From the NCBI RefSeq assembly GCF_988242995.1, contig NZ_OZ547043.1: a stretch of DNA of 64,000 bases; one strand, given 5' to 3'. The stretch's first letter is position 1, and each line of letters starts with the position of its first letter. Below, one piece after another: positions 8,681 to 59,506 of the stretch. Under the pieces are notes generated by a model that had not been told where the DNA came from, made no database searches, and saw only the letters and a program-made list of their open reading frames with translations. The position numbers were made by a program, and so were the translations under genes.

Positions 8681-8771
8681 GGCATTTTCTCCTTTCGTGC
8701 ATCACTCCCTTAACGCCAATTACGTCAAGGGCATACCAGGTTATCACTGAACGGTACACAATTTATCAAGC

Positions 8772-9413
8772 TTATTCAAAGAACTGACTTATTTTCGCTT
8801 TCAATATATCGATGGCGATGCGGTTTTTCCCGCCGCGCGGCACGATAATGTCCGCATATTGTTTAGAAGGCTCAATGAATTGCAGGAACATCGGGCGCAC
8901 GGTTTTTTGATATTGCGCCATCACTGAATCCATTGAACGCCCACGCTCGTTAACGTCACGCTTGATGCGGCGCATCAGGCAGATATCCAGCGGGGTATCA
9001 ACGAAAATGGAGAAGTTAAGTTCGTCACGCAAACGCGCATCTGTCAGCAACAAAATGCCTTCGAGAATGATGACCTTCTTCGGCTCAACCGTCACCGTTT
9101 CTTTCATTCGCGTATGTTCAACATAGCTGTAAACCGGCAGGTCAATTGCCGAGCCGCGTTTCAACGCTTGTAAATGCTCAAGCAACAGGCTGTGATCCAT
9201 CGCGCTGGGATGGTCGTAGTTGGTCTTAACGCGTTCTTCCATCGACAGATGGCTTTGATCTTTGTAATAGCAGTCTTCGGGAATTACGCCGATGTGTTCA
9301 TCACCGACTTGCTCACGTAATTCACGATAAAGGGTACTGGCAATAAGACTCTTGCCGGAAGCCGATGCGCCAGCGATACCGATAATGACGCACTGATGAG
9401 ACTGATCAGTCAT
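8772..9413 (-). CDS. udk: Uridine/cytidine kinase
   Basis: ORF track 8772..9476; start trimmed to ATG 9413 ([23 protein letters not shown]-loop), giving 213 aa. Confidence 0.9.
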
Positions 9414-9730
9414 ATATTTAGCGACCTGATTAACCTGGATGTTAGGAAGGGGGCGACGAAGCGCCAAACGCGGCAATTATAGGGATTTCATCCGCCTGAT
9501 ACCAGTCGAATAGCGTTGCCGCGCGCTCAGAGTTAATTGTTGACGAAGAATTCCCGGTGGCAAATTACGTTGATCAGTTTTATACAAGGTAAAAATTGTT
9601 ATACGCAGTTGCGCAAATTATCCGCCTTTACGTCACTTTATGAGCAATTCGCATATAAAATGTAAAACTTTTGTACTAGCATAAACACAGAAACGAATAC
9701 TGGCGACCTGGTCTTGCGGATAAAGCGGTA

Positions 9731-12700
9731 ATGAGCAAACAATCACAGCATGTATTAATTGCCCTGCCCCACCCGCTGCTTCACCTGGTCAGTTTAGGTT
9801 TAGTCTCGTTTATCTTTACCCTTTTCTCGCTTGAGCTTTCGCAGTTTGGCACCCAACTCGCCCCACTGTGGTTCCCGACGTCCATCATGATGGTGGCGTT
9901 TTATCGCCATGCCGGGCGCATGTGGCCGGGGATTGCGCTGAGCTGCTCGCTGGGAAATATCGCCGCATCCATCCTGCTTTTTTCCACCAGCTCGCTGAAC
10001 ATGACCTGGACGACCATCAATATTGTTGAAGCCGTGGTCGGGGCAGTGCTACTACGTAAATTGCTGCCGTGGTATAACCCATTGCAAAATCTGGCTGACT
10101 GGCTGCGTCTGGCACTCGGCAGCGCCATTGTTCCACCTCTGTTGGGGGGTGTTCTGGTTATCCTGCTGACGCCCGGAGACGATCCTCTCAGGGCATTTTT
10201 GATATGGGTACTGTCAGAATCCATCGGCGCACTGGCACTGGTGCCGCTGGGATTGTTATTTAAACCACACTATCTGCTGCGCCATCGCAACCCACGGTTG
10301 CTTTTTGAGTCGCTGCTCACGTTAGCCATCACACTGACGTTAAGCTGGCTTTCGATGCTGTATCTGCCGTGGCCTTTTACTTTCATTATTGTGCTGTTGA
10401 TGTGGAGCGCCGTGCGCCTGCCACGAATGGAAGCCTTTTTGATCTTCCTTACCACGGTGATGATGGTGTCACTGATGATGGCCGCTGATCCCTCCCTGCT
10501 TGCTACGCCGCGTACATACCTGATGAGCCATATGCCGTGGCTACCGTTTTTGCTGATCCTGCTGCCCGCCAACATCATGACCATGGTGATGTATGCCTTT
10601 CGTGCGGAACGCAAACACATTTCCGAAAGCGAAACCCGTTTTCGTAATGCCATGGAATATTCCGCCATCGGCATGGCATTAGTGGGCACCGAGGGACAAT
10701 GGCTGCAATCCAACAAAGCGCTCTGCCAGTTTCTCGGTTACAGTCAGGAAGAACTGCGCGGACTCACCTTTCAGCAACTGACCTGGCCGGAGGATCTCAA
10801 TAAAGATCTGCAACAGGTTGAAAAGCTGATCAGCGGTGAAATAAACACCTATTCAATGGAAAAACGCTACTACAACCGCAATGGCGATGTTGTCTGGGCG
10901 TTGCTTGCCGTCTCACTGGTGCGCCACACGGATGGCACGCCGCTCTATTTTATCGCTCAGATTGAAGACATTAACGAGCTAAAACGCACCGAACAGGTGA
11001 ACCAGCAACTGATGGAGCGCATCACGCTGGCTAACGAAGCGGGCGGGATTGGCATCTGGGAGTGGGAGCTAAAGCCGAATATTTTTAGCTGGGATAAGCG
11101 GATGTTCGAGCTGTATGAAATTCCTCCGCATATCAAACCGAACTGGCAGGTGTGGTACGAGTGCGTGCTGCCGGAAGATCGCCAGCATGCCGAAAAAGTG
11201 ATTCGTGATTCGTTGCAATCACGCTCGCCCTTTAAGCTGGAATTTCGCATTGCCGTGAAAGATGGCATCCGCCATATCCGCGCCCTCGCCAACCGGGTAC
11301 TGAATAAAGAAGGCGAAGTCGAACGTCTGCTCGGCATTAATATGGATATGACCGAGGTTAAACAGCTTAACGAGGCATTGTTTCAGGAAAAAGAGCGCCT
11401 GCACATTACGCTGGATTCCATCGGCGAAGCCGTGGTTTGTATTGATATGGCAATGAAAATTACCTTTATGAATCCGGTGGCGGAGAAGATGAGCGGCTGG
11501 ACGCAGGAAGAAGCGTTAGGTGTTCCACTCCTGACGGTGTTGCATATTACTTTTGGCGACAACGGACCATTAATGGAGAACATTTACAGTGCCGACACCT
11601 CACGTTCCGCGATTGAACAAGATGTGGTGTTGCACTGCCGAAGCGGCGGCAGCTACGACGTGCATTACAGTATTACGCCGTTAAGTACTCTGGACGGCAG
11701 CAATATTGGTTCGGTTCTGGTGATTCAGGACGTCACCGAATCGCGCAAAATGCTGCGCCAGCTGAGCTACAGCGCCTCCCATGATGCACTGACGCATCTC
11801 GCCAATCGCGCCAGTTTTGAGAAGCAACTGCGTATCCTGCTGCAAACGGTAAATAGTACGCACCAGCGACATGCCCTGGTGTTTATCGATCTTGATCGCT
11901 TTAAAGCGGTGAATGACAGCGCCGGGCACGCCGCTGGCGACGCTTTACTGCGCGAACTGGCGTCATTGATGCTGAGTATGCTGCGCTCCAGCGACGTGCT
12001 GGCGCGACTCGGTGGCGATGAATTTGGTCTGCTGCTGCCAGATTGTAATGTCGAAAGTGCGCGTTTTATCGCTACACGCATTATCAGCGCCGTGAATGAC
12101 TATCACTTTATCTGGGAAGGACGTGTACATCGGGTAGGTGCCAGTGCCGGGATTACCTTGATTGATGACAACAATCATCAGGCGGCTGAAGTGATGTCGC
12201 AGGCTGATATCGCCTGTTATGCCTCCAAAAATGGTGGCCGGGGCCGGGTGACGATTTACGAACCGCAGCAAGCTGCCGCACATAGCGAACGGGCGGCGAT
12301 GTCGCTTGATGAACAGTGGCGGATGATTAAAGAGAATCAGTTGATGATGATCGCCCACGGTGTCGCTTCGCCGCGGATCCCGCAAGCGCGTAATTTGTGG
12401 CTGATTTCACTTAAGCTCTGGAGTTGCGAAGGCGAGATTATTGATGAACAAACATTTCGTCGTAGCTTCAGCGATCCGGCACTTAGCCATGCTCTTGACC
12501 GACGGGTATTCCACGATTTTTTCCAGCAGGCCGCCAAAGCGGTTGCCAGTAAAGGTATAAGCATCGCCCTCCCGCTTTCCGTTGCCGGTTTGAGTAGCGC
12601 CACGCTGGTGAATGAACTAATTGAGCAGCTGGAAAATAGCCCTCTACCACCACGGTTATTACATCTGATTATTCCGGCAGACGCGATTTTAGATCACGCA

Positions 12701-38699: not shown

Positions 38700-39890
38700 T
38701 TAATTGCTGTTAACCGAGGTGACCAGATTTGCCAGGTATTTATCGGTAATACGCTGGCGCAGGGTCAGGTTTTCAAGAGGAGGCACCGGTGTATAGTCGT
38801 AGTCGATATACAGTTTTCCGGCCTTGAGGGTTTCCGCATCGTTGGATTCTTCGCTGAACCAGCAGGTCGCATCCACGATATAGCCGTTTGTTTTCAGCTC
38901 ACGGAATTTGGCATTGATGCCGTCAACGATGTCGCGAATCAGCGTTGCGGTGATGGGCTTGTCCACCGCCCACATGTGCGCCTCAGCCATCGTGTCGGCC
39001 ATCACCTGCGCGGTGCGGGTGTAGTTTTCAAAGAGGAACAGCGGGTCATCAGAGCAGGTACGGTTACCCCAGAATCGGAAACCGTCGCGGCGAATCAGCG
39101 TAGTGACGCCTGACTCGTTAAGCAGGTCAGCATCGGTGCCGGACTCCTGCAAATCCCAGAATACAGATGCGCTGATGCCGGTAACACCGTTTACCCCGAC
39201 GTTGGACAGCGTTTTATGCCAGCCCTGCTCCTGGTCGATTTTAGCGCGCAGACCCAGCGCACGGGCGGTGGCATACGCGGTGGCGGTGGTACTGGTGACC
39301 GTATCCCATGCGAGGAAATCCGGCCAGATGACCATCAGCTCACGCTGGCTGAAATTCTGGCGGTAGGCTTTCACCTCGGAAATGGTCTTACAGCCCCATG
39401 CGCTGATATATCCGAAAGCGCGCAGCTTCTGACAGACGGATGCCAGTGCAACAGCCACCTCTTTGGTATCCAGTCCCGGCACGCCGAGAATACGCGGTTT
39501 AACACCGGTTACCGACTCCGCCGCCAGCAGGGCTTTCAGTCCGGTGTACTGACCGTTTTCGTCGGTGGTGCCGATGATATTGGAAACGGTCTGCGCAAGT
39601 TTCGTTTCCTCGTCATCACCGGTGCCGTCTTCCACGCGCACGACAACGGTGACCGGTTTTGACTGGTCAGCGATGGCCTGCAACGATGCCGCCAGCGTGC
39701 CTTTTTTACCGGCCTTTGCAATTGCGCTCTGCACATTGGTAATCAGCACCGGTTTATTGAGGGGGAAGGTTTCCGCATCCGCATCGCTGGCCGTGCAGAC
39801 CATGCCGACAATGGCAGTGGATACGGTGGAAATGACGCGGGTGCCGTCGTTAATCTCCAGCACCTGCACGCCGTGATGATAGTCACTCAT
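38700..39890 (-). CDS. FI: Contractile tail sheath protein gpFI
   Basis: 396-aa ORF beginning MSDYHHGVQVLEINDGTRVISTVSTAIVG. Confidence 0.9.
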   Translation of the reverse strand: MSDYHHGVQVLEINDGTRVISTVSTAIVGMVCTASDADAETFPLNKPVLITNVQSAIAKAGKKGTLAASLQAIADQSKPVTVVVRVEDGTGDDEETKLAQTVSNIIGTTDENGQYTGLKALLAAESVTGVKPRILGVPGLDTKEVAVALASVCQKLRAFGYISAWGCKTISEVKAYRQNFSQRELMVIWPDFLAWDTVTSTTATAYATARALGLRAKIDQEQGWHKTLSNVGVNGVTGISASVFWDLQESGTDADLLNESGVTTLIRRDGFRFWGNRTCSDDPLFLFENYTRTAQVMADTMAEAHMWAVDKPITATLIRDIVDGINAKFRELKTNGYIVDATCWFSEESNDAETLKAGKLYIDYDYTPVPPLENLTLRQRITDKYLANLVTSVNSN

Positions 39891-40257
39891 CCGTTTAACT
39901 CCGTGGTTAATGGGTGCAACTATTTTCTGTTGTGCAGAGCATGAGACGCTATTTGCCCTGGATGGTCAGTGGATGAAACAACAGATACAGAAAAGGCGGG
40001 CAATTCGCCCGCATTTCCTAATTTGTACTAACCCAGCTTCCAACTGACAATTTACGTAGCCAAAAAGCTATCAAGTCTGGCAGACTGATTTGTACGAGGT
40101 GTGGATAACCATAATTATGTGCATGCTAACATCACGGTGCATGAGTCAATCGGGTCTATGCCAAAGAATTACGCCTTGATTGACCATAGATTGCTTGCCC
40201 TTGAATTTGACCATTCCAATAAAATGAATTATGATAATCGTCAAATGGAGGTGCACA

Positions 40258-40902
40258 ATGATCAAACACACCGCAGCAGAAAGGGAAACCAACACTTCAG
40301 CTAAGCTGAATGAATACCAGTTGAACCTTCTGAAAAGAATTAACAACCTCGCTATTTCCCTGATGCCTGAATTTGAAGACAAAAACCAGGCAATTAATGC
40401 TATCACGCTGGATGATAGTTCACTGATGCAATTGCTCTACACCGTTCAACTCGAACAGAAGACTCGTGTCAATGACTACGAACTACGTAAAGTGCGCCGT
40501 CGTCGCGAAAATCTGGAACGATTTTATCGTGGGCTTCAGGAGTTAGGCGGTACGCTAAAGGTAAATGACGTGGTCGATATTCTTGGAATCACCCGCCAGG
40601 CGATCAACATTCGCGTTAAGAAGAACAAGCTTTTAGCATTCAAGCAGAACGGTGATTTTATTTTCCCGAAATTTCAGTTCACAGATAACGGGCTGATTCC
40701 CGGCTTTGAAGACGTAATGGCGGCATTTGACGAGAATACCCATCCAATGCTGAGGTTGGGTGTGCTGAAATCACCAATAGAGGTTAATAGCGAAGGCCTG
40801 AAAAAGACGCCGATTCAAATCATGCAGGACGGCGCTAAAAATAGTGAACTTAGTCTGGCTATCCGTGCCGCTAAACAGTTCGGAAATCATGTATCCAGTT
40901 AA
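40258..40902 (+). CDS. Hotspot cargo: HTH protein with C-terminal MbcA/ParS (DUF2384)-like toxin-binding region; putative antitoxin or regulator
   Basis: ORF track 40231..40902; ATG 40258 has a GGAGG RBS, giving 214 aa. Central HTH-like segment (VVDILGITRQAINIRVKKN); C-terminal SPIEVNSEGLKKTPIQIMQDG...LSLAIRAAKQFG resembles the MbcA/ParS toxin-binding domain as recalled; not in the P2 core. Confidence 0.45.
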   Translation: MIKHTAAERETNTSAKLNEYQLNLLKRINNLAISLMPEFEDKNQAINAITLDDSSLMQLLYTVQLEQKTRVNDYELRKVRRRRENLERFYRGLQELGGTLKVNDVVDILGITRQAINIRVKKNKLLAFKQNGDFIFPKFQFTDNGLIPGFEDVMAAFDENTHPMLRLGVLKSPIEVNSEGLKKTPIQIMQDGAKNSELSLAIRAAKQFGNHVSS

Positions 40903-40908
40903 TTGTTT

Positions 40909-40940
40909 TAAAAAGAGGGGCTAGCCAGCCCCTCTTTGGT
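40909..40940. terminator. Bidirectional intrinsic terminator between the convergent cargo genes
   Basis: Hairpin AGAGGGGCT-AGCC-AGCCCCTCT flanked by T-rich runs on both strands, lying in the 38-bp gap between the two stop codons. Confidence 0.6.
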
Positions 40941-41651
40941 TTACATTGGTTCTGGCGTAATTTCGAATCCAAGCAGTTCTTCGAACATCTCTTCACCTGA
41001 CATCGTTCCTTTGTGCCACCCTTTAGGGAAGATACCTTCGTCATTTTCGATGTAACTGGCATAAGGCACCATCCCCTGAGGGGTATCGGTAAAGGCTGGT
41101 GTACTATCCGGTCGTTCCCAAAAGGCATAACAGCGTTTATAGCGTTTATGCCTTGAGGTATAGGCTATCCCGTCATAGTCACGCCCGAAATGTGTATAAA
41201 GATGTTCCATTAGCCATTGAGTAAAAGTGTAATCCTCGTTCTCTAAGCTATCCAAAGGAATATGTAACAACTCACAGAGCGCTACAACATCGATCACTTT
41301 CACTGGCCTCATGACATCCACAGAGCACATATAGTGTTGTGAAAGTACCGATTCAGGATAAGAAATCGTCCCTTCGAGATGGAGCAAACGCCCATAAGCT
41401 TCTGCCGCCGCCGTTAACGCAGAGTCAGAGGCATACCATACCGCCACACATCCCCCTGGGGGGTTGTATCGCCCACATTCATTTTCCTCAATTGGCGCTC
41501 TGAAGTTGATTGCGCTTTCATACAACGCCCTTTGATGACGCTTCAAAAGACCAGAGCCTGGTTGAATGTCAATCGCCGGAATACGTCCAGATTTATTTTT
41601 TGCAGCAATTCCTTGTGCAACAATATTTTTTTCAAATGTCCATTTGGTCAT
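40941..41651 (-). CDS. Hotspot cargo: RES-domain protein (putative NAD+-consuming toxin)
   Basis: ORF track 40941..41699; ATG 41651 has an AAGGAG RBS, giving 236 aa. N-terminal CGRYNPPGGCVAVWYASDSALTAAAE matches the RES signature GGRWNPP...Y.A.S...A..E (Arg, Glu); later DGIAYTSRH supplies the conserved Ser. Confidence 0.55.
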   Translation of the reverse strand: MTKWTFEKNIVAQGIAAKNKSGRIPAIDIQPGSGLLKRHQRALYESAINFRAPIEENECGRYNPPGGCVAVWYASDSALTAAAEAYGRLLHLEGTISYPESVLSQHYMCSVDVMRPVKVIDVVALCELLHIPLDSLENEDYTFTQWLMEHLYTHFGRDYDGIAYTSRHKRYKRCYAFWERPDSTPAFTDTPQGMVPYASYIENDEGIFPKGWHKGTMSGEEMFEELLGFEITPEPM

Positions 41652-42066
41652 TTTTACTACTCCTTCTATAAACAGATTAAGCCATAGGCTCCTCTCCATA
41701 TTGATTGAAAATAATCCCTACCGTGCTTGCCCGGCAGGGGGTATGAGAACATGTGTATCTCAATCTCGATTATACCAAGCAAATTTTCTATTTTTCGGAA
41801 ATTTAGAGAGTTTTTTTAATGCTTCGCATGCCTTCTCGATGTATTGATGGGGCTGAAAAGAAGAAATAACGCAGGAAGTTTTACGGAAAGGAGAACTATA
41901 AAGATTTTTTTCAAGTGAATTAGAAATAAGAACTTCGCAGGATACTGCATTTTTAGTGAAGATGGGTTGAGTTTCTCAGCAAGAGTCCCGCGAGAGCCGT
42001 ATTGACAGCATGCATGACTCGGAGATTATTCCCCATGCAGGATGGTACACCAATGCAAGAGTTGGT

Positions 42067-42255
42067 TTACGCAAATGATTGGATGATCGCGATTACCGAC
42101 CGTACATTGCGCAAATAACGTTCTGCGTCGATGCTATTAAGATGCCCCGACCACACCGTACGACGGACGCCGTAGTGATCCGAGCTTAAGAATAGATAAT
42201 CTTTTCTCTCCGGATTCACCGTTCGCAGTGCGTTTTCCATAGCTGTCGCAAGCAC
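42067..42255 (-). CDS. Small hypothetical ORF in the Z/fun-equivalent region
   Basis: 62-aa ORF (MLATAMENALRTVNPERKDYLFLSSDHYGVRR...) without a recognisable RBS; may be a gene remnant. Confidence 0.2.
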   Translation of the reverse strand: MLATAMENALRTVNPERKDYLFLSSDHYGVRRTVWSGHLNSIDAERYLRNVRSVIAIIQSFA

Positions 42256-42345
42256 AATACTTCCGCTACAGGCACAGAGCGGACTGTCAGATTAGGTTTT
42301 ACTCTGTGCCATAGATGAGTAATCTCACACCAGATCTAATACGAT

Positions 42346-42924
42346 TTATTGTGGCATTTCAGGCCATTCTATATCCGGAGCATCTTCCGGCTGAACGCGA
42401 TTCAGTAGCACACGGTATTTTTTCCAGTGTGTCAGGCTTAACTTTTCTTCCTCGGTAGCCATATCTAAATCGACAGCATCCTGCAGCGTGGCAATAATTT
42501 CACCTGCATATGCAATCAGCTCTTTCTTCTGAGAGTCAGCCGCTCTGACAAGCGCATCACGCTCTGCATTCTCATCATTCACCCACGCATTTCCGTTCCA
42601 TTTCTGATAATCCCCATCCGGGGAAATGGCTGTCACGTCTGGAGGTAATGCGCCAAGTTCAGAAATATAAATGGCTGCTCCCGTTTTCGTTTCGTAGACA
42701 GTCTTTCCGCGATGATCTTCCATCAACTCCCATTTTATTTCATCTGCATTGAAAACGGCTGCATAACCAGCCGGTATATCAGGCGGCGCAATATCTGTAC
42801 TGTTTGCAGGCAGACCTGTATACGGTGGAATATACGCGTCACTTTCCCCAATAAATTCATTGGTTCCATCAAGTAAATTAAATACGCGGATAGTTTGTGC
42901 TTCTGCACTCATTCTGAAAGCCAT
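42346..42924 (-). CDS. G: Tail fiber assembly chaperone (gpG/Tfa-like)
   Basis: 192-aa ORF immediately downstream of and overlapping the tail fiber gene stop; conserved position. Confidence 0.7.
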
Positions 42925-57554: not shown

Positions 57555-59387
57555 TCAAACAGAGCCCTGTTCAAAAACAGTATCAAAATATGGTAGGAGA
57601 GGATAAGCACACAGAAAGAAAATCAGGATGCATGCATATGTCGTTGTTTCATCGTAACAAGCATTAGTATATAAATTACCATGTGCTAATTTATGTCTTA
57701 AGGTTGCCCCACTCTTTCTGTTAAAAAGAACATCGATAGTCAAAACAAGATTTTTAGAAAAGATACTTTCCAAATCATCTCTGCATTTATCTAGAAGCTG
57801 AGAAATACTTGTTGACTCCTCTAATCCCTTATCCAAATATCTAGTAGCATCCTTTCCACTAAGCTCATAATAATAACGAACCATACCTTCCATTTGTGGT
57901 ATTAAAAGATAAGCTGCACTGATGTAATCTCCCTGCCATAATTTGTAAAAGCCCAAATTAAAAATCTCCCTAAACTCCGGCTTGACAATTGGACTAGTTG
58001 TAACCAATTTAACGAATGTTGACAACGTCAAGCCATGTTCTTGAGAAAGTACATAGCGAGCAGGTTCAAAGACACCGTTTACAAAAATCTTATGAGTAAT
58101 CTCGAAATTTCTTAGATATTGATCAATAACAACATCATCACTCATATCTTTTTTATTATCCAACGGCGGGATTGTATATATCTTACGCCCACTCTCATCA
58201 TTAATTTCTGTTCCAACAAAACTAGAGAATAAACTTTTTTCTGATAATCTTAAAACTTGTTCCCTCATGCTTTCAATATTTTCAATCGGTGTTTCACTCA
58301 TTAAAACTTTGAATATATCGGGCAAAGAACGCCCCGTCAGTTTTTTTTCACTTTCAGCAACCAAGTCACTAATATCAATAGAATGGCTTAAAGTGACATA
58401 TTCACTCCTTACTTCTTCTCTCAAATTAGCAAGTTGTTCCTTTAAATCTTCTATCTGTTGGCTATCACCACCGTACTGTCTTAATTCAGAGATAGCTGTT
58501 CTTAACCAAGAGATCTTACCCATATTATCAGGTCGTTCTGTTGCAACTTTAATAGTAATATTTGCAGATGCCAGTTTACATCTCTTGGCACGTTCATACT
58601 CACCATTTTTTTCATAAATAACTGCACTTGTCATATAAAGTGATTTTACAGCATCATAATATTTTTTATCTTTATGCTGCTCAGCCATCTTCTCAGCATT
58701 TTCCGCATACTGCAGATTATACCCATCAAAATCACGCACCATAAACCAAGTCAAATTATTGAAACCTTCAAAGATTAATCTTTCATTTTGAATACTATAA
58801 AGAGAATGAATGGCATTTTTAATCGCCATGTTTCCTTCTGATTTTCTAGGGTAGACCATTTTATTAATGTGCAAAGCCCTAGCAATATAATCACGAGCAA
58901 AAATAAAGCAATTTAAATCACTTTCATCCATGCTTTCGTTTTTTATTATTAGCTTTTCAATTGCTATATTTAGCATTTCAGCATAGGAATCAATTGCTTT
59001 AATTGCCACGTCTTTATTTTTCCGATTATTACACCAAACAACATCATATATTCTTGATAACAAAAATGGATTGGTTATTTTTTGAGAAACATATAAAAGA
59101 CAGTCATTCACCTGCTCATCAAAATCTTCAGGCAATATTGATCTTTTATTACCCCAAATCATTTGGGGTTCAAATGCTGGAGTGTTGTTAACAACTTGCA
59201 AATTGAAACTATATAGCATACCAAAAAGAGATGCTAATTTTTTCTCTTTGGGGTTTTCTGATGACTCAGCAATCCCATCCAGATATTTTTTTATTTTATG
59301 TGCATGAAATGTAACTGGTATATACATAAAAACACTATAATCTAGTGTTTCAAGCTCTTCCCTTGTAAGAACAAAGATATCATTCAT
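57555..59387 (-). CDS. Hotspot cargo: large AT-rich protein of unknown family with C-terminal HEPN-like Rx4H motif; candidate anti-phage effector
   Basis: ORF track 57555..59492; likely start ATG 59387 with AAGGTGA RBS (MNDIFVLTREELETLDY...), giving 610 aa. Occupies the position of P2 tin/old; codon usage visibly AT-rich; no Walker A, TOPRIM or RT motif seen; LRHKLAHG near the C-terminus. Confidence 0.6.
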   Translation of the reverse strand: MNDIFVLTREELETLDYSVFMYIPVTFHAHKIKKYLDGIAESSENPKEKKLASLFGMLYSFNLQVVNNTPAFEPQMIWGNKRSILPEDFDEQVNDCLLYVSQKITNPFLLSRIYDVVWCNNRKNKDVAIKAIDSYAEMLNIAIEKLIIKNESMDESDLNCFIFARDYIARALHINKMVYPRKSEGNMAIKNAIHSLYSIQNERLIFEGFNNLTWFMVRDFDGYNLQYAENAEKMAEQHKDKKYYDAVKSLYMTSAVIYEKNGEYERAKRCKLASANITIKVATERPDNMGKISWLRTAISELRQYGGDSQQIEDLKEQLANLREEVRSEYVTLSHSIDISDLVAESEKKLTGRSLPDIFKVLMSETPIENIESMREQVLRLSEKSLFSSFVGTEINDESGRKIYTIPPLDNKKDMSDDVVIDQYLRNFEITHKIFVNGVFEPARYVLSQEHGLTLSTFVKLVTTSPIVKPEFREIFNLGFYKLWQGDYISAAYLLIPQMEGMVRYYYELSGKDATRYLDKGLEESTSISQLLDKCRDDLESIFSKNLVLTIDVLFNRKSGATLRHKLAHGNLYTNACYDETTTYACILIFFLCAYPLLPYFDTVFEQGSV

Positions 59388-59506
59388 CGTTTTCACCTTT
59401 TTCAGTATAAATTTGCACGCATTATTATTAGCAACATAATCATCAATAGTTAACACATGCAGATAGACAGCAATTTTACTATTATGCAACAAATTAAATC
59501 AGATGT

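Follow-up and report, generated by a model that had tools for sequence, protein, structure and literature searches.

The slot between genes G and FI of P2-like prophages, known as the fun/Z slot, was examined in a stretch of 64,000 nucleotides of contig NZ_OZ547043.1 (assembly GCF_988242995.1; this whole stretch is called the window below). Here the slot carries a pair of convergent genes foreign to P2, both lying where a preliminary description of this DNA had placed them. The minus-strand gene (40941..41651, start at 41651) encodes a RES-domain protein of 236 amino acids, a putative NAD+-degrading toxin, and the plus-strand gene (40258..40902), called the partner in what follows, encodes a protein of 214 amino acids, a putative antitoxin and regulator. 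From sequence comparisons and modelling, we consider it likely that the pair consists of an NAD+-degrading RES toxin kept in check by a cognate winged-helix antitoxin.

In the scheme that we favour, a self-contained, mobile cassette of the toxin-antitoxin type (core 40207..41782) would have landed in the G-FI slot of a P2-like prophage. The RES protein would destroy NAD+, most likely through a phosphorolysis that releases nicotinamide and ADP-ribose-1''-phosphate, as judged by homology to MbcT, Res, NatT and aRES, and the loss of NAD+ would arrest or kill the cell. The partner most likely binds the RES protein directly, and probably also represses transcription via its winged helix. The two genes, unlike those of canonical Xre-RES operons, point towards each other; each would have its own promoter, and both would end at one bidirectional terminator. 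Toxin output would probably be limited by the leader of the RES gene, through a terminator-like stem-loop and a possible occlusion of the ribosome-binding site.

A RES-family protein on the minus strand

The preliminary description had pointed to a RES-domain signature in the minus-strand product, and the motifs CGRYNPPGG, LTAAAEAYG and AYTSRH are indeed present. The Pfam check that it had called for gave RES (PF08808) at E = 1.5e-12 over residues 44-182, as the sole Pfam domain of the protein, and the same domain was present in all 34 close homologues out of 34. Twenty-four relatives, some of them as little as 30% identical, were aligned: R61 (of GRYN) and E84 (of AAE) are invariant among them, and S166 (of YxSRH) is found in at least 90% of the sequences. 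In a fold comparison, the protein shows the RES/ART fold, and the RES part of an AlphaFold fusion model (see next section) shows predicted local distance difference test values (pLDDT) mostly between 83 and 96. By its sequence, the protein belongs to the RES family. Ordered additions are present at both its N- and C-terminal ends: MbcT, ParT, VPA0770 and Res are chains of some 145-185 amino acids, and NatT, with 250, is as long as the 236-residue protein described here.

The toxin is already annotated automatically as RES family. In the RefSeq genome of E. coli SA186, the two coding sequences of the cargo are named "hypothetical protein" (214 amino acids) and "RES family NAD+ phosphorylase" (236 amino acids), and they neighbour sheath, tube, tape-measure and tail-fibre genes. 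No PHROGs match was obtained for the RES protein, and scans with PADLOC v2 (E<=1) and NCBIfam returned no family for either the RES or the partner protein. An in-frame ATG further upstream, at 41699, which would open a reading frame of 252 amino acids, was rejected as the start of the RES gene: homologues are 234-239 amino acids long, and in the copies of Pantoea and L014 the added stretch either lies in another frame or is interrupted by a stop.

Evidence that the partner is probably the cognate antitoxin

Four independent lines of evidence indicate that the partner is probably the cognate antitoxin of the RES protein. To begin with, the co-occurrence is obligate on the side of the RES gene. 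All 24 loci retrieved with the RES protein as query (21 metagenome and 3 viral contigs) hold a convergent partner, the 3' ends of the two genes being 20-71 nt apart. The same convergent pair was found in Pantoea and Kalamiella chromosomes, on an 83-kb viral contig, and on Klebsiella IncHI1B and IncR plasmids. Look-ups starting from divergent partners gave the same layout, on a MobA plasmid contig and at locus L051, where the partner is 28% identical, and the convergent pairing persists in copies whose RES protein is down to 30-33% identical.

The second line comes from decay. When genomes were collected with the partner as query (n = 12), the RES gene was intact in 5 of them, absent or reduced to a remnant of 30 or 85 amino acids in 6, and undecidable in the remaining one, where the contig ends. 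An insertion sequence (IS) of the IS3 type lies next door in one of the RES-less genomes, and in one metagenome copy the RES gene has an in-frame stop and its partner persists. The reverse decay, a RES gene deprived of its partner, was never seen among the loci examined. Such an asymmetry, with the RES gene lost and the partner kept, is typical of a toxin and its antitoxin.

As side observations, a partner next to a lost, truncated or nonsense-mutated RES gene was recorded at loci L011, L015, L016, L017, L018, L021 and L042, and at locus L005 a solitary partner of 34% identity is surrounded by clustered RelE and HipA toxin-antitoxin pairs.

Distant homologues of the partner provide the third line. 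Two of them, P0216 (E = 9e-13) and P0259 (E = 7e-11), match only residues ~87-212 of the partner, and the gene of each immediately precedes a RES gene on the same strand, which it overlaps by 4 nt. P0259 furthermore matches the Pfam family Xre-MbcA-ParS_M ("Antitoxin Xre/MbcA/ParS-like, middle domain") at E = 5e-4. The tie of the partner to RES antitoxins is made by distant homologues residing in canonical operons, and not by a DUF2384 match.

Finally, the two proteins were modelled as a single partner-(GGGGS)6-RES chain with AlphaFold, from an alignment of 27 paired rows (P0107 and P0132, which looked mispaired, were omitted). The predicted template modelling score (pTM) was 0.75 and the mean pLDDT 82, with some 45 residues of linker and tail disordered. 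As the RES protein accounts for only 49% of the chain, a pTM of 0.75 suggests that most of the partner is confidently placed relative to it. The partner modelled alone had a pTM of 0.58, and its N-terminal helices were about 8 pLDDT points higher in the fusion.

Domains and relatives of the partner

The partner is predicted to comprise a helical N-terminal region (residues ~1-95), a winged helix-turn-helix (HTH; ~99-140) and a helical C-terminal domain (~150-213). A long N-terminal extension had been noticed in the preliminary description, rightly so: its ~95 residues are helical and conserved, and the protein as a whole is conserved along its full length among relatives. The same description had proposed an HTH followed by a C-terminal end resembling the MbcA/ParS (DUF2384) domain. 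The first half of this proposal stands, except that the HTH, in the middle of the protein, is winged and of the Rv2175c/HTH_17 (excisionase/MerR-like) type; an HTH_3/Xre match was not found in the partner, and PHROGs gave a weak excisionase-type HTH match only. As to the second half, the resemblance is weak: in the DUF2384 profile check, the partner had no Pfam match even at E<=10. Among 48 distant homologues of the partner, none matches PF09722 (DUF2384/Xre_MbcA_ParS_C) at E<=0.001 and 4 do so at E<=0.1, and 14 match Xre-MbcA-ParS_M at E<=0.1.

The structure closest to the partner is that of Rv2175c (PDB 2kfs), a mycobacterial winged-HTH DNA-binding protein, which lacks the N-terminal helical region and for which no RES linkage is known. 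A profile search of 1.8 billion proteins produced 1,503 partner relatives. Short homologues of 134-144 amino acids, devoid of the N-terminal region, do not adjoin RES genes, and one of them is found beside TniQ and a ribonucleotide-reductase gene. The winged helix and C-terminal domain taken alone were consequently rejected as a hallmark of RES antitoxins.

Convergent layout and expression signals

That the genes are convergent, with promoters of their own and a shared bidirectional terminator, had been put forward in the preliminary description, and the signals detected agree with it. The stop codons of the partner and RES genes are 38 nt apart, and the interval holds a predicted bidirectional intrinsic terminator, AAAGAGGGGCT-AGCC-AGCCCCTCTTT (40912..40937), picked up by a terminator scan, which is a perfect 11-bp inverted repeat flanked by an A-run and a T-run. 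A comparable GC-rich intergenic hairpin with A/T-rich flanks was present in 12-13 of the 14 divergent modules that were folded. Comparison of the sequences indicates that convergent order is a defining and conserved trait of this RES clade, and not accidental.

Each gene is preceded by a promoter-like element. On the partner side (plus strand), a consensus scan gave TTGACC-17-TATGAT at 40207..40235 (10 matches out of 12, function putative), with a Shine-Dalgarno (SD) sequence GGAGG 3' of it at 40247..40251; the TTGAC- box and the SD are kept in the Pantoea and Kalamiella copies. On the RES side (minus strand), the sequence shows an extended -10 element, TGGTATAAT, at 41777..41769, a putative promoter. 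A search for repeats common to the two promoter regions, as a shared operator would require, yielded none that was convincing, and an Rfam search across 39500..42800 (E<=1) returned no family for the RES leader or the intergenic hairpin.

A structured leader upstream of the RES gene

The RES promoter and a structured leader of ~110 nt occupy 41652..41777 (minus strand), as delineated by sequence, folding and covariation, with a predicted transcription start. Two stem-loops are found in its 5' part. SL1 (~41762..41744, minus strand) is followed by SL2 (41739..41716, minus strand), which was identified by terminator scan and covariation and is terminator-like, with an 8-nt loop, GGCAAGCA, and a U-rich tail. 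The SL2 stem covaries: 90% of cells are paired, double changes have occurred in 6 of its 7 pairs, and none of 500 shuffles scored as high; controls in which the stem was slid along had far lower scores. The loop GGCAAGCA is identical in L003, L007 and L024, and it stays so among modules with RES proteins of just 30-58% identity. In most close relatives, SL2 is likewise followed by a U-rich tract and receives a terminator-like score. The minimum free energy of the leader is -38.2 kcal/mol (z = -2.8 relative to shuffled sequence), and in the predicted fold the U-rich tract base-pairs with the SD sequence of the RES gene. We infer that the leader attenuates the toxin gene or occludes its translation.

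Further down, conservation of the leader exceeds that of the coding sequence in one block (41706..41671, minus strand). This block contains an SD-like sequence, GGAGAGGAG, a palindrome, AGCC-TAT-GGCT, and a mini-ORF of 2 codons (ATG GCN TAA/TGA; 41685..41677, minus strand), located ~25 nt ahead of the actual ribosome-binding site of the RES gene. The winged-helix partner might use this block as its operator, or else the block might serve as a decoy or standby site for ribosomes. The sequence TGCTTGCC, complementary to the SL2 loop, was considered as a partner site for the loop and rejected as a chance occurrence, being not conserved: in the window it precedes the partner promoter, and in three loci it falls within the LLAF codons.

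Distribution and mobility of the module

Of 5,426 complete E. coli genomes, 9 contain the exact locus, and in each of them it occupies this slot of the prophage; the backbone flanks are matched by ~935 genomes. All nine prophage copies are intact, they are 99.6-99.7% identical, and the strains come from human, poultry and swine sources. In a tenth E. coli genome, A28, a module of 87% identity resides in a non-phage island together with ArdC and IS66. The A28 homology covers 1.6 kb, from 40207 to 41782, starting at the -35 box of the partner and stopping just past the extended -10 of the RES gene. Because it ends at both promoter elements, the cassette appears to move as a promoter-to-promoter unit.

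The RES family was also found on 141 plasmids, 114 of them conjugative, mostly from Klebsiella or Raoultella; the carriers include IncHI1B, IncR and small MobA plasmids. Among 50,697 deposited phage records, none showed the cargo or a protein related to the RES protein. Several chromosomal copies of the module lie among housekeeping genes, and IS elements flank other copies. The copy of Pantoea sp. A4 (L003) is in a defence-island context, since a candidate system detected by PADLOC, PDC-M01A/B (8752..11276 of that locus; E = 7e-246 and 9e-128), a complete two-gene, Septu-like ATPase pair, lies ~2 kb from the RES-partner module, with two small ORFs in between.

Comparison with known systems

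MbcT-MbcA of M. tuberculosis (Rv1989c/Rv1990c) is a type II RES toxin-antitoxin system, and no sequence-level match links it to the present pair. It is an antitoxin-first operon, whereas the genes described here are convergent, with separate promoters. The present toxin, of 236 amino acids, differs from MbcT by its extra N- and C-terminal elements, and the partner differs from MbcA by its winged helix, its ~95-residue N-terminal extension and its lack of a DUF2384 match. More generally, the canonical Xre-RES pairs (Xre-RES of P. putida, ParST, NatRT, VPA0770/0769 and KnaAT) are co-transcribed, antitoxin first, with an Xre HTH of the cro/C1 type and a DUF2384 domain, so that gene order, HTH class and antitoxin domain make-up all differ from ours. 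Of the traits that define a canonical type II pair, the ever-present adjacent partner was found here; an antitoxin-first operon and an N-terminal Xre HTH were not. In its working, the pair would nevertheless resemble an Xre-RES type II toxin-antitoxin system.

KnaAT, a canonical RES-Xre pair, is a demonstrated stability module of a Klebsiella plasmid (PMC10896132). The position of its active-site residues, R27, E48 and S115, indicates that KnaT is a much shorter protein than the RES protein of the window. Whether the Klebsiella plasmid copies mentioned above might be KnaAT was checked, and the idea was rejected, KnaAT being a different, co-transcribed pair of the canonical kind.

Closest by descent are the co-directional, uncharacterised RES operons with a winged-HTH antitoxin represented by P0216 (L053) and P0259 (L054; PF23125). 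In these operons, the antitoxin gene comes first and its end overlaps the RES gene, and the N-terminal regions are unrelated to that of the partner. Compared with them, the present clade has its antitoxin gene flipped, so that it faces the RES gene across a terminator.

RES-domain enzymes named aRES occur in defence contexts and protect by depleting NAD+, yielding ADPR-1''-phosphate; they are standalone proteins of 300-600 amino acids that carry PF18870 as an additional domain and lack a partner gene (bioRxiv 10.64898/2026.01.28.702374). The RES protein described here is not an aRES, as its size (236 amino acids), its domain content (RES only) and its constant pairing all differ. As to fun(Z) of P2 and other G-FI cargo, they share with the RES cassette the same slot, where they are non-essential and cause lysogenic conversion, and have no sequence relation to it. 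In the literature searched, we found no description of the convergent RES clade, of its three-part partner or of its leader.

RES enzymes are known to act as toxins in persistence or addiction and, from 2026 on, also as effectors of phage defence. The clade would represent a third packaging of these enzymes, with a winged-helix antitoxin bearing an added N-terminal domain, obligate convergence, and a promoter and structured leader proper to the toxin. It is common on large conjugative plasmids of Klebsiella, and has probably been overlooked in surveys, since both proteins fall outside the defence models of PADLOC.

Weighing the possible roles

Several points weigh against an NAD+-degrading toxin and its antitoxin, and have to be set against the evidence above. 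Toxicity of the RES protein, loss of NAD+ and neutralisation by the partner are all inferred. When the RES family profile was compared to PDB sequences (E<=1), no solved RES toxin was matched; the clade is therefore distant, and its chemistry could differ. On the partner side, no Pfam, NCBIfam or PADLOC match exists. To our knowledge, its closest structural relative, Rv2175c, binds DNA and is not known as an antitoxin. The half made of the winged helix and C-terminal domain is not specific to RES, since the short homologues occur without it. Support for a complex is indirect, coming as it does from the pTM of a linker fusion predicted from a shallow alignment. With these points counted in, a RES toxin with a cognate winged-helix antitoxin still appears to us the likely identity of the pair.

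What the pair does for its carriers is a separate matter, on which two proposals deserve to be kept, each of them possible rather than probable. The first, which the preliminary description had preferred to a plain addiction cassette, is abortive infection directed against phages: a superinfecting phage would cut the supply of antitoxin or induce the RES gene, NAD+ would collapse, and the cell would die before phage release. This has a precedent in the slot itself, fun(Z) being able to block T5, and candidate defence systems are found in the other hotspot of the same prophage (PDC-S39) and ~2 kb from the Pantoea copy (PDC-M01). Independent promoters and a terminator in the leader would permit a trigger acting at the level of transcription. 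Phage-borne RES-HTH pairs have been proposed to inhibit superinfecting phages (Iyer et al. 2022, PMC9503650), and RES-domain proteins of the aRES type protect through NAD+ depletion (bioRxiv 10.64898/2026.01.28.702374), although their two-domain, standalone architecture of 300-600 amino acids is a different one. Against a defence role, neither protein is matched by a PADLOC model, the module resides for the most part on conjugative plasmids (114 of 141 plasmid records) and in 0 of 50,697 phage records, and several chromosomal copies are among housekeeping genes.

The second proposal, which we hold to be just as conceivable, is that of a plain addiction or selfish cassette, which would stabilise its replicon by post-segregational killing, would have arrived in the P2 slot by chance, possibly via a transposable element, and would play no anti-phage role. 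The mainly plasmid-borne distribution (IncHI1B, IncR and small MobA plasmids) speaks for it, as do the transposase fragment beside the prophage copy (see last section), the IS elements flanking other copies, the rarity of the locus in E. coli (9 of the ~935 genomes matching the P2 backbone) and the frequent decay of RES with retention of the partner; a canonical pair, KnaAT, does stabilise a Klebsiella plasmid (PMC10896132). However, the slot is a recognised site of lysogenic conversion, and nine intact prophage copies with 99.6-99.7% identity fit the recent spread or the retention of a functional locus. Defence and addiction are in any case not mutually exclusive for toxin-antitoxin systems, so that an addiction function is compatible with a defence role. 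Should the cassette defend its host, it would tie plasmid-borne toxin-antitoxin modules to NAD+-centred immunity; should it not, it would illustrate cleanly how an addiction module can hitch-hike in a defence hotspot.

A more elaborate proposal, which strikes us as rather improbable, takes the convergent layout as a sensing device. The pair would be transcriptionally uncoupled, the leader would act as an attenuator with the GGCAAGCA loop as recognition site for a protein or an RNA, and the toxin would be fired by the phage. The trigger might then be antitermination or a shut-off of host transcription, antisense read-through across the shared terminator, or a phage protein captured by the N-terminal helical domain of the partner. 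If true, this would amount to a transcription-level trigger for RES abortive infection, on plasmids and prophages alike.

The chemistry itself might be another one. ParT, for one, is an ADP-ribosyltransferase. The RES protein of the window could ADP-ribosylate proteins in the manner of ParT, or produce an ADPr derivative that is toxic or acts as a signal, instead of depleting bulk NAD+. We deem this unlikely: in its favour, the clade is too distant for a sequence match to any solved RES toxin, and its extra N- and C-terminal elements set it apart from the shorter toxins (236 amino acids, compared to ~145-185 in MbcT, ParT, VPA0770 and Res, NatT having 250), but most characterised RES toxins, namely MbcT, Res, NatT, KnaT and aRES, deplete NAD+. 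Weakest of all is the idea that the partner is a transcription factor only, RES being silenced by repression and at the RNA level (attenuator, occluded ribosome-binding site): the missing DUF2384 match, a convergent layout that abolishes translational coupling and the conserved, structured leader would suit it, but a pTM of 0.75 implies that the two modelled proteins are placed with confidence relative to each other, homologues of the partner are found in canonical RES operons at the antitoxin position, upstream of the RES gene and overlapping it, and the conserved ~95-residue N-terminal region would have no obvious role in a simple repressor.

The G-FI slot, its flanks and other accessory regions

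The slot is bounded by the P2-type tail sheath gene FI (38700..39890, minus strand) and the tail-fibre assembly gene G (42346..42924, minus strand). The preliminary description was correct in calling it the Z/fun cargo slot, occupied by non-P2 genes. P2 itself carries there fun(Z), which is non-essential and whose cloned copy blocks T5 (P2 annotation), and Wphi carries an unrelated gene, orf44; the content between G and FI is thus non-backbone and differs between phages. GC content is 0.40-0.47 in the interval, as compared to 0.55-0.59 in the adjoining tail genes. The limits given earlier for the cargo, 39891-41699, had to be revised: only the outer ~210 bp and ~85 bp of the interval align to P2, Wphi and other P2-like phages, which places the foreign cargo at ~40106..42258. 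The G-FI slot is hereby flagged as a second cargo site of P2-like prophages. A hotspot study of 2022 reportedly dealt with the cos-proximal site only.

Outside the cargo, the intergenic DNA upstream of FI (39891..40105) is P2 backbone, 87-90% identical to P2, Wphi and relatives (query bases 1-215), and corresponds to the F-operon promoter region of P2, where the P2 annotation places the pF activator site and the start site upstream of FI. A terminator scan detected a terminator-like hairpin in this flank (40012..39996, minus strand). At the other end, the remainder of the cargo (41783..42258), starting where the A28 homology stops at 41782, is specific to this prophage lineage and confined to the nine E. 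coli genomes carrying the locus. It includes a 62-residue C-terminal fragment of a transposase (42067..42255, minus strand), which matches PHROG transposase families (E = 1.7e-6 and 3e-5) by their C-terminal part only. This fragment is probably an IS remnant brought in along with the cargo, and suggests a route by which the cassette may have arrived in the slot. The P2 backbone restarts at ~42259, other P2-like prophages matching from query base 470 onward.

Two observations were made elsewhere in the window. Another accessory region of the prophage (57555..59492, minus strand), between a probable portal gene and a gene for a 774-residue protein, encodes a protein of 645 amino acids that matches PDC-S39 (E = 3e-84), a family listed by PADLOC as a defence candidate; by gene order, we take this to be the position of the old/tin hotspot of P2. 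Inside the tail-fibre assembly gene (42383..42581, minus strand), a sub-threshold match to Rfam IS009 was obtained (52 bits for a gathering score of 117, E = 2.4e-10); our guess is that this family was perhaps defined on a homologous tail-fibre region of a cryptic prophage, and that the match is not a separate RNA gene.

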